40,000 nt of DNA from an uncultured Clostridia bacterium (GCA_944393435.1 CALYAE010000021.1:1-40000), one strand, 5' to 3'. Shown: positions 20,416-20,450, counted from the first letter of the stretch. Translations and numbers: made by a program. Notes: generated by a model not told the origin, from the sequence alone.

Positions 20416-20450
20416 TTGTCACTAATGGGGACGTTCCTTAAAAGTGACAC
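20416..20450. repeat. REP-like hairpin element (family 1), just 3' of hpf
   Basis: The sequence is TTGTCACTAATGGGGACGTTCCTTAAAAGTGACAC. A stretch of 24 nt (GGGGACGTTCCTTAAAAGTGACAC) is identical to 38788..38811. The stem pairs GTCACT with AGTGAC. Confidence 0.8.

Follow-up and report, generated by a model that had tools for sequence, protein, structure and literature searches.

Near-identical GGGGAC-core hairpins in an uncultured Clostridia bacterium as likely repeats of a TIRYT / RAYT group 1 system

The DNA analysed here, a 40,000-nucleotide stretch from an uncultured Clostridia bacterium (hereafter the window), appears clostridial, with an alpha/beta SASP gene, hpf, pgeF and an LD-carboxypeptidase gene, and its GC content is 30.5%, not the approximately 28% put forward in an earlier note on the same sequence. 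Two TGTCACT-type hairpins, copy 1 and copy 2, are found in intergenic DNA of this window (Table 1). Copy 1 is separated by 5 nt from the hpf stop (20455), on its 3' side, and stands between that stop and a separate, genuine terminator (20360-20405) that is common to the convergent alpha/beta SASP gene. Copy 2 follows the pgeF stop (38813) directly on its 3' side and is immediately 5' of the start codon and ribosome-binding site of the LD-carboxypeptidase gene, where it occupies the 36-nt intra-operon spacer from the pgeF stop to the ribosome-binding site of the next gene. The earlier description of both copies as sitting immediately 3' of hpf and pgeF is accurate; however, copy 2 is equally 5' of the LD-carboxypeptidase gene. 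Tandem 3' arms stand beside copy 2 (Table 1), and relatives show a like iteration of the 5' arm (TGTCACTT TGTCACTT).

Table 1. Positions of the hairpins, modules, gene and associated sites; scores are those of the covariance model
Feature	Position	Strand	Remarks
Copy 1, TGTCACT-type hairpin	20417..20449	+	TGTCACT-AAT-GGGGACGTTCC-TTAAA-AGTGACA; 36.3 bits
Copy 2, TGTCACT-type hairpin	38779..38810	+	37.8 bits
Three tandem 3' arms AGTGACA beside copy 2	38804, 38815, 38826 (span 38804..38832)	+	11-nt spacing
Inverted doublet (REPIN-like), third arm type	3858..3926	.	GGGACGTTC core; 23.1 and 26.5 bits
Non-hairpin module 2	17391..17420	+	TGTCACT-TTAT-TGTCACT-TT-GGGGACACC; just upstream of mcsB ribosome-binding site; 13.3 bits
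Non-hairpin module 2	23396..23417	+	TGTCACT-AT-GGGGACAACACTC; gatA-gatB junction; 12.2 bits
Inverted doublet, GGGACC-type	27306..27381	.	TGGGACC-ATT-GGGGACAKACCCC-TTTA-GTCCCA; immediately downstream of Y1 gene; overlaps aspS 3' end
Single AGGACC-type hairpin	28252..28286	-	AGGACC-GTT-GGGGACAGAC-TTATTT-GGTCCT; upstream of Y1 gene; opposite in orientation to the downstream doublet
Clade-A Y1/HUH tyrosine transposase-like gene	27385..28170	-	261 aa; Pfam Y1_Tnp; C-terminal helix-turn-helix region
Copies ahead of ribosome-binding sites	window 38758-38812, 17368-17420, 23352-23417; L007, L016, L028, L032, L036, L038		
Y1 leader hairpin and motif sites	window 28171-28250; L007 4917-5060; L021, L023, L026, L028, L034, L035, L038		upstream of Y1 start

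Copy 1, TGTCACTAATGGGGACGTTCCTTAAAAGTGACAC (20417-20450), and copy 2, TGTCACTATGGGGACGTTCCTTAAAAGTGACAC (38779-38811), were both found where the earlier note had placed them and are, as it had described, a single inserted A apart; the longest run that they share is 26 nt (ATGGGGACGTTCCTTAAAAGTGACAC), so that the sharing of an identical run stands, but not the length of 24 nt once given for it. The 23-mer GGGGACGTTCCTTAAAAGTGACA occurs exactly twice in the window, and 100 dinucleotide-preserving shuffles of the window contained no match to it with up to three mismatches allowed; the near-identity of the two copies is far above chance. The stem-loop that had been proposed is present in both copies, each of which has a 7-bp outer stem (TGTCACT/AGTGACA), a small inner stem and a loop of approximately 19 nt containing GGGGACGTTCC. 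Folding energies as DNA are -5.8 and -6.1 kcal/mol (z -2.7 and -2.9), and copy 1, folded as RNA with its flanks, attains -13.2 kcal/mol.

Repeat detection together with a motif scan yielded extra GGGGAC-core sites. In total the window contains seven full hairpins, in which the (T)TGGGGAC core is invariant and the outer arms vary but are complementary, plus the two non-hairpin modules; every full copy folds alike. Three of the seven hairpins bracket the Y1 gene. The REPIN-like doublet is a perfect 28-bp hairpin (-47.6 kcal/mol as RNA, z -12) placed exactly between a convergent DUF4364 gene and a 480-aa gene and, whatever its origin, probably acts as a bidirectional transcription barrier. Besides the two in the window, inverted doublets were observed in the related loci L016 (3570/3607), L021 (7850/7927) and L034 (18051/18103). 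The module 2 upstream of mcsB encodes the last 12 codons and stop of a minus-strand mcsA-like ORF (RCPQSDNKVTKK and stop; 17382-17420).

Several further observations concern the genes of the window. The gatA ORF (minus strand, 23328-23450) has lost its ancestral stop, gains approximately 29 codons across the second module 2 and overlaps the gatB start. The gatB gene (minus strand, 21904-23352) carries in-frame TGA codons at 23065-23067 and 22573-22575, both of which correspond to Ser (TCA) in the intact L017 ortholog; recoding of TGA was rejected, since TGA terminates several genuine genes of the window, in favour of a pseudogene or of an artefact of assembly or strain. In the close relative (L017-L020; L017 12962-13812) gatC and aspS are separated by a Spo0A_C-domain gene, which is duplicated in L025, and the window (25171-25215) is without it. 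An apparent split ORF at position 403 had no Pfam match and is probably no gene.

The link between stem and core was measured without bias by counting GGGGAC sites that had not been selected for a hairpin. Perfect stems of 6 bp or more flanked 5 of 9 such sites in the window (chance 4.7%, P 2e-5) and 12 of 17 GGGGAC sites in loci picked only via the Y1 protein (P 4e-12). A MAFFT alignment of 22 hairpins was the basis of both a covariation count and a covariance model. GGGAC is invariant in this alignment, and 89% of the outer-stem cells are paired; both sides change in 8 of 9 pairs, with a covariation score of 0.58 compared to 0.07-0.15 for slid partner columns, although this count illustrates the pattern and is no proof, as it is biased because the search that chose the hairpins demands a stem. 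Covariation of the inner stem was rejected, the only changes being between G-C and G-U (G-T) with the GGGG half constant, and this pattern points to sequence recognition of GGGG rather than to pairing. The covariance model regained both arms of the doublet at 3858-3926, which was outside the training set, and gave 44 matches in 233 kb of related loci; the covariance-model search that the earlier note had suggested thus recovered further copies within the window and beyond it.

The best-scoring model for the protein encoded at 27385 was NCBIfam NF047646 (REP-associated tyrosine transposase, equivalog), with 70.5 bits (E 1.3e-19) against a curated cut-off of 80 bits, which the protein misses; the NCBIfam IS200 model gave 20 bits and its cut-off of 55 was not reached either. 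The family profile had 4ER8 (E. coli TnpA-REP) as its sole match of solved structure, and the closest fold to the predicted structure (pLDDT 87) was again 4ER8, with its bound REP hairpin, ahead of all IS608, ISDra2 and IS200 transposases. The motifs N-H-x-H and Y-I-H-x-N-P are invariant across 33 relatives. The C-terminal domain is helical in the predicted structure, and this region matched HTH_23 in 13 and HTH_28 in 11 of the 33 members, all weakly. Orthologs of this clade (clade A) with 87%, 52% and 47% identity directly follow adhE in the same orientation, and an ortholog with 54% identity lies nearby; the gene, which is single-copy and fixed beside adhE, does not behave like an insertion sequence.

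Each clade-A ortholog is bracketed by two inverted hairpins, in which the core (A/G)TTGGGGAC(A/G) is constant and the arms vary by lineage yet remain complementary (GGGACC/GGTCCC, AGGACC/GGTCCT, TGCGCAA/TTGCGCA, TGCCA/TGGCA and TGAGACA/TGTCTCA). The same hairpin type is also found remote from the gene in each lineage, for example in five copies within 20 kb of L021. The gene at 27385 has a hairpin type of its own, with GGGACC/AGGACC arms and the core GGGGACAGAC, and clade-A cores are GGGGACAGAC-like. Short contigs that end inside the flanking hairpins were rejected as a sign of high copy number, because flanks that repeat one another in inverted orientation would break the assembly graph anyway. 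As a separate observation, the 5' leader of the Y1 genes of clade A and of a second clade, clade B, contains a small conserved hairpin (for example GATGTATAA...TTATGCATC for clade A and AATATAGCAT...ATGCTATATT for clade B). After it comes a GGGGGCA(A/T)(A/T) motif, 30-60 nt ahead of the start codon (Table 1), and this hairpin with its motif could be an autoregulatory site.

Clade B was encountered through the TGTCACT-type copies. A scan of 185,579 species genomes, a collection without the source genome, for the TGTCACT hairpin pattern gave 14 loci, 12 of them in four MAGs of uncultured Clostridia, and 8 of these 12 in one rabbit-gut MAG; strict-pattern matches numbered 8 in the richest MAG, several of them within duplicated upstream regions of paralogous genes, and 1 in a complete 1.7-Mb MAG. 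A match in Fluviicola (L005) was treated as chance, being coding-looking sequence with no second module. JGI metagenomes scanned for the GTTCC-specific hairpin gave no match and no added copies from the source lineage. The element of the relatives is compound, running from iterated 5' arms through the hairpin to the module TGTCACT-N2-4-GGGGACA, sometimes with an inverted partner. In the rabbit-gut MAG (L007) a second Y1 gene was found, with 33% identity to that of the window and equal length and motifs, and it is bracketed by inverted TGTCACT-type hairpins (TGTCACTTTGGGGACGTTC...AGTGACA). Y1 genes of this clade keep a fixed position directly 5' of radA-disA across identities of 100% to 48%. 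Their arms are again compensated (TGTCACT/AGTGACA, TGTCAGT/ACTGACA, TGTCGCA/TGCGACA and TTGGCAC/GTGCCAA); in L028, however, the flanking repeats are not self-complementary, and the hairpin may therefore not be essential.

The core-proximal tract distinguishes the two clades. Because clade-B flanks read GGGACGTT(C/T)C in all seven lineages read and those of clade A are GGGGACAGAC-like, the GGGGACGTTCCTT of the TGTCACT-type copies is the clade-B signature, as is the core of the doublet at 3858-3926. From these comparisons the element appears to be laid out as a drifting, complementary outer stem of 6-9 bp, (T)TGGGGAC in the 5' part of the loop and, proximal to this core, a short clade-specific tract.

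Three other observations were made in the clade-B loci and their relatives. A region of approximately 200 nt is repeated in the rabbit-gut MAG Lapin-030__bin49 (L006 2700-3020, L009, L010, L014 and L015), where it contains a (CA)n run and iterated TGTCAYTT arms together with the hairpin and module 2, and precedes several paralogous large prepilin-like genes (N-terminus MKKEKIRERLRQCKGITLIALVVTIVVLIILA); five of the rabbit-gut copies are not independent insertions, because they lie within this duplicated upstream region of paralogous pilin-like genes. In Jeotgalibacillus salarius (Bacillales; L008 3050-3330) a nested palindromic compound element follows the same grammar, with TGTCACT-GT-GGGGACGGAGG...AGTGACA and then TGTGCACGTC-GGGGACAGGC ... 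GTCCC-AGACGTGCACA ... CCTCCGTCCCC. No Y1 gene was found in the 8-kb L008 locus; the element suggests that the class reaches into Bacilli. Another inverted-repeat unit, TTAGGGAAC...~70 nt...GTTCCCTA, lies approximately 100-300 nt upstream of the clade-B Y1 gene in L036 and L038, in the stretch that separates the GGGAC hairpins from the Y1 promoter region, and could be an unrelated miniature element.

We consider it likely that the two copies belong to a short non-autonomous REP-like repeat of a TIRYT / RAYT group 1 / TnpA-Y1 subclass 2.1 system, bearing a clade-B signature and with a radA-linked enzyme as its predicted partner. The element would probably be mobilised by Y1 enzymes, a mobility that we infer. 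The low counts of strict-pattern matches and the incomplete fit of the TGTCACT-type core to the published GGGGWSAS speak against this assignment. Because the GGGGACGTTCC core brackets the radA-linked Y1 clade in all seven lineages examined, the cognate enzyme probably comes from a radA-linked paralog that lies beyond the window; this link was seen in a related MAG and not in the source organism. No clade-B Y1 gene was observed in the source organism, which is itself known as metagenome contigs only; the three closest clade-B proteins (P0122, P0124 and P0125) are all encoded upstream of radA with the right core, and none has the exact arm and loop variant of the window.

Hairpin recognition and cleavage are structurally and biochemically established for TnpA-REP and IS608 TnpA. 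By analogy with E. coli TnpA-REP and IS608 TnpA, the hairpin would form once the DNA is single-stranded, the Y1 enzyme would recognise its shape together with the GGGGAC core and would cleave and rejoin the strand beside it, and occasional new copies would be seeded in short intergenic spacers, either singly or in inverted doublets or clusters. Effects on neighbouring genes, such as RNA hairpins and altered C-termini, would then be a by-product. To our knowledge, the literature holds no demonstration of transposition, cleavage or binding for the TIRYT class.

The earlier note had considered a REP-like dispersed element and, among its possible roles, a substrate of the transposase-like protein at 27385. 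A structured, REP-like element linked to a Y1 (IS200-like) transposase family agrees with the assignment given here; the protein at 27385 is the right kind of enzyme but probably the wrong paralog, as that gene has its own hairpin type and GGGGACGTTCC is of clade B. That the window's own Y1 protein services all GGGGAC-core hairpins of the genome would account for the invariant TTGGGGAC core and common layout of all hairpin types; moreover, the gene is intact with invariant catalytic motifs and is the sole Y1 gene seen in the source organism, and clade-A L021 has a core, GGGGACGTAC, that is one base off that of the TGTCACT-type copies. However, the flanks of 27385 differ from those copies in arms and tract (GGGGACAGAC[CCC]) in the window and in four of five clade-A lineages, the exact tract GGGGACGTTCC(TT) surrounds clade-B genes, and each RAYT is paired with its own repeat family (PMC6006769); we regard a single servicing enzyme as unlikely.

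A second alternative is that the elements are kept mainly for a host role at the RNA level, be it 3'-end protection, processing or translation of the downstream gene. Copy 1 lies in the hpf 3' UTR and forms an RNA hairpin of -13 kcal/mol, the doublet at 3858-3926 is very stable between convergent genes, and REPs of other bacteria stabilise mRNA (PMC3733652). Furthermore, several copies in the window and in relatives are 10-45 nt upstream of a ribosome-binding site (Table 1). Many copies are oriented GTCCCC-NNN-GTGACA-(GTGACA)n with the ribosome-binding site and start codon following 10-45 nt on, and the genes downstream of such copies are ldcA, mcsB and gatB in the window and radA in six clade-B lineages; copies so placed may mark tolerated insertion sites or have an effect on translation. 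Nevertheless, the element is not kept at orthologous spacers. The orthologous SASP-hpf spacer is empty in L023, where the terminator leads straight to the hpf stop, and holds an unrelated 75-nt insert in L017, so that the hairpin occurs only in the window, and we infer that copy 1 is a lineage-specific insertion and not a conserved function. No terminator-like or promoter-like site was found at copies 1 and 2, and a search of Rfam 15 families at the gathering score gave no match in the window. Orientation is mixed overall: the window copies are antisense to their flanking genes, and most copies of the relatives, several of them non-independent, are co-oriented. The conserved sequence core also follows the Y1 clade and not the neighbouring gene. 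An RNA-level role of this kind is quite improbable, and the 3'-UTR signal that the earlier note had offered among its possible roles finds no support in the empty spacer in L023, in the position of copy 2 before a ribosome-binding site, or in the lack of terminator- or promoter-like sites and of a uniform orientation.

The perfect inverted half-sites, with arms repeated two to four times in tandem, could also be read as an operator that a transcription factor binds in duplex DNA, TGTCAC-N19-GTGACA with iterated arms. The regulator could be the helix-turn-helix of the Y1 protein itself, and the Y1 proteins do carry a C-terminal HTH-like region. This reading is scarcely credible, as the arms vary by lineage and the invariant part is the loop core, which in an operator would be the spacer; the neighbouring genes have no function in common (hpf, ldcA, mcsB, gatB, radA and pilin-like genes), and the orthologous site in L023 is without the element. 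A related idea, that the 3' arms (TTAGTGACA, TTTGGCACA and TTTTGCGCA) mimic DnaA boxes for a DnaA-domain-IV-like C-terminus, was rejected, no member matching Bac_DnaA_C. The ends of IS200/IS605 elements have subterminal hairpins. Even so, and despite the Pfam Y1_Tnp domain in the 27385 protein, it is barely conceivable that the hairpins are ends or leftovers of an ordinary IS200/IS605-type insertion sequence, since the IS200 score falls far below its cut-off, the genes are single-copy and fixed across deep divergence, the flanks repeat one another in inverted orientation instead of forming distinct left and right ends, no tnpB is adjacent, and Y---NP is the signature of class 2 and not of IS200 (PMC6006769).

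A broader interpretation builds on the TIRYT-type assignment and is possible, if on balance doubtful: small-genome gut Clostridia may carry two anciently domesticated Y1/HUH enzymes, the first in a fixed position after adhE and the second immediately 5' of radA-disA, each co-evolving with its own GGGGAC-core hairpin family in a long-lived REPIN-RAYT-like partnership in Firmicutes. If so, the partnership would occur in group 1 / subclass 2.1, a RAYT class for which REP-like structures are reported to be absent, the invariant loop core would be the recognition or cleavage signal that the drifting, compensated arms merely present, and the adjacency to the DNA repair genes radA and disA could mean a host role in the processing of single-stranded DNA. 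The loci describe the organisation of the least-studied large RAYT class in Firmicutes, with an invariant core, compensated arms, a clade-specific tract and fixed genes, and the 33-nt hairpin together with the two candidate enzymes offers candidate substrates for the first TIRYT biochemistry. For annotation, the assignment would account for near-identical non-coding 33-mers in an AT-rich genome, for the C-terminal extensions of mcsA and gatA and for adjacent contig breaks.

TIRYTs/TIRtrons have been described as RAYT-like genes flanked by terminal inverted repeats with a common GGGGWSAS, and some TIRtron repeats are self-complementary and occur scattered in moderate numbers, singly or in dimers or clusters (PMC3733652, Di Nocera et al. 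2013). TIRYTs correspond to TnpA-Y1 subclass 2.1, with Y---NP and a C-terminal HTH_23/HTH_28- or DnaA_C-like domain, for which REP-like structures were not found (PMC6006769, Quentin et al. 2018); the same proteins are RAYT group 1, which is present in Clostridia and has modestly repeated flanking 16-mers of approximately 12 copies (PMC5581495, Bertels et al. 2017). Repeats in inverted orientation flank the Y1 gene in the window and in all examined lineages of both clades. An independent metagenome sample gave a significant inverted repeat upstream and downstream of 40 of 51 related genes with usable flanks, and 28 of these 40 loci carry a GGGGWSAS/GGGAC core, many as arm-core-arm. The published GGGGWSAS is matched at 8 of 8 positions by the clade-A flanks (GGGGACAG) and at 6 of 8 by the TGTCACT-type core (GGGGACGT). 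The system thus resembles the TIRYT / RAYT group 1 / subclass 2.1 class in its inverted GGGGWSAS repeats, C-terminal HTH-like extension, Y---NP, low copy number and occurrence in Clostridia; it differs from that class in having two fixed paralogs (at adhE and at radA), each with its own core-proximal tract, and a non-hairpin module, TGTCACT-N2-4-GGGGACA, often beside the hairpin, and from subclass 2.1 as described (PMC6006769) in its clear arm-core-arm hairpins with compensated arms.

Canonical REP/REPIN-RAYT systems (E. coli TnpA-REP, 4ER8; Pseudomonas REPINs) likewise have a single-copy, vertically inherited Y1 enzyme, bracketing and dispersed palindromes, and inverted doublets. However, the conserved motif is here inside the loop and not at the foot of the stem, no GTAG or GTGG (the 5' GT[AG]G tag) was present beside the stems of the hairpins examined, copies seem to number tens at most and not hundreds, and the protein, with its additional C-terminal domain, does not reach the RayT cut-off. 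CGTC-tagged REPs (Di Nocera et al. 2013) are similar in being small palindromes, often head-to-head dimers, and the reverse-strand core GGAACGTCCCC contains CGTC; in those REPs, however, the tag is an unpaired end motif, the stem is 8-9 bp, the loop is 4-5 nt and no transposase is associated, whereas the present elements have an internal motif, a loop of approximately 19 nt and an associated Y1 gene. IS200/IS605 elements (IS608, ISDra2) share the Y1 HUH fold and hairpin recognition in single-stranded DNA, but are multi-copy and autonomous with distinct left and right ends, often tnpB, and Y---Q, none of which was seen here. Because there is no GTAG tag and the protein scores short of the RayT equivalog cut-off, the system is filed under TIRYT and not under canonical REP-RAYT. 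As far as sequence comparison can tell, the hairpins and their Y1 genes are not a new kind of element but a tidy new example of the described TIRYT / group-1 RAYT class.
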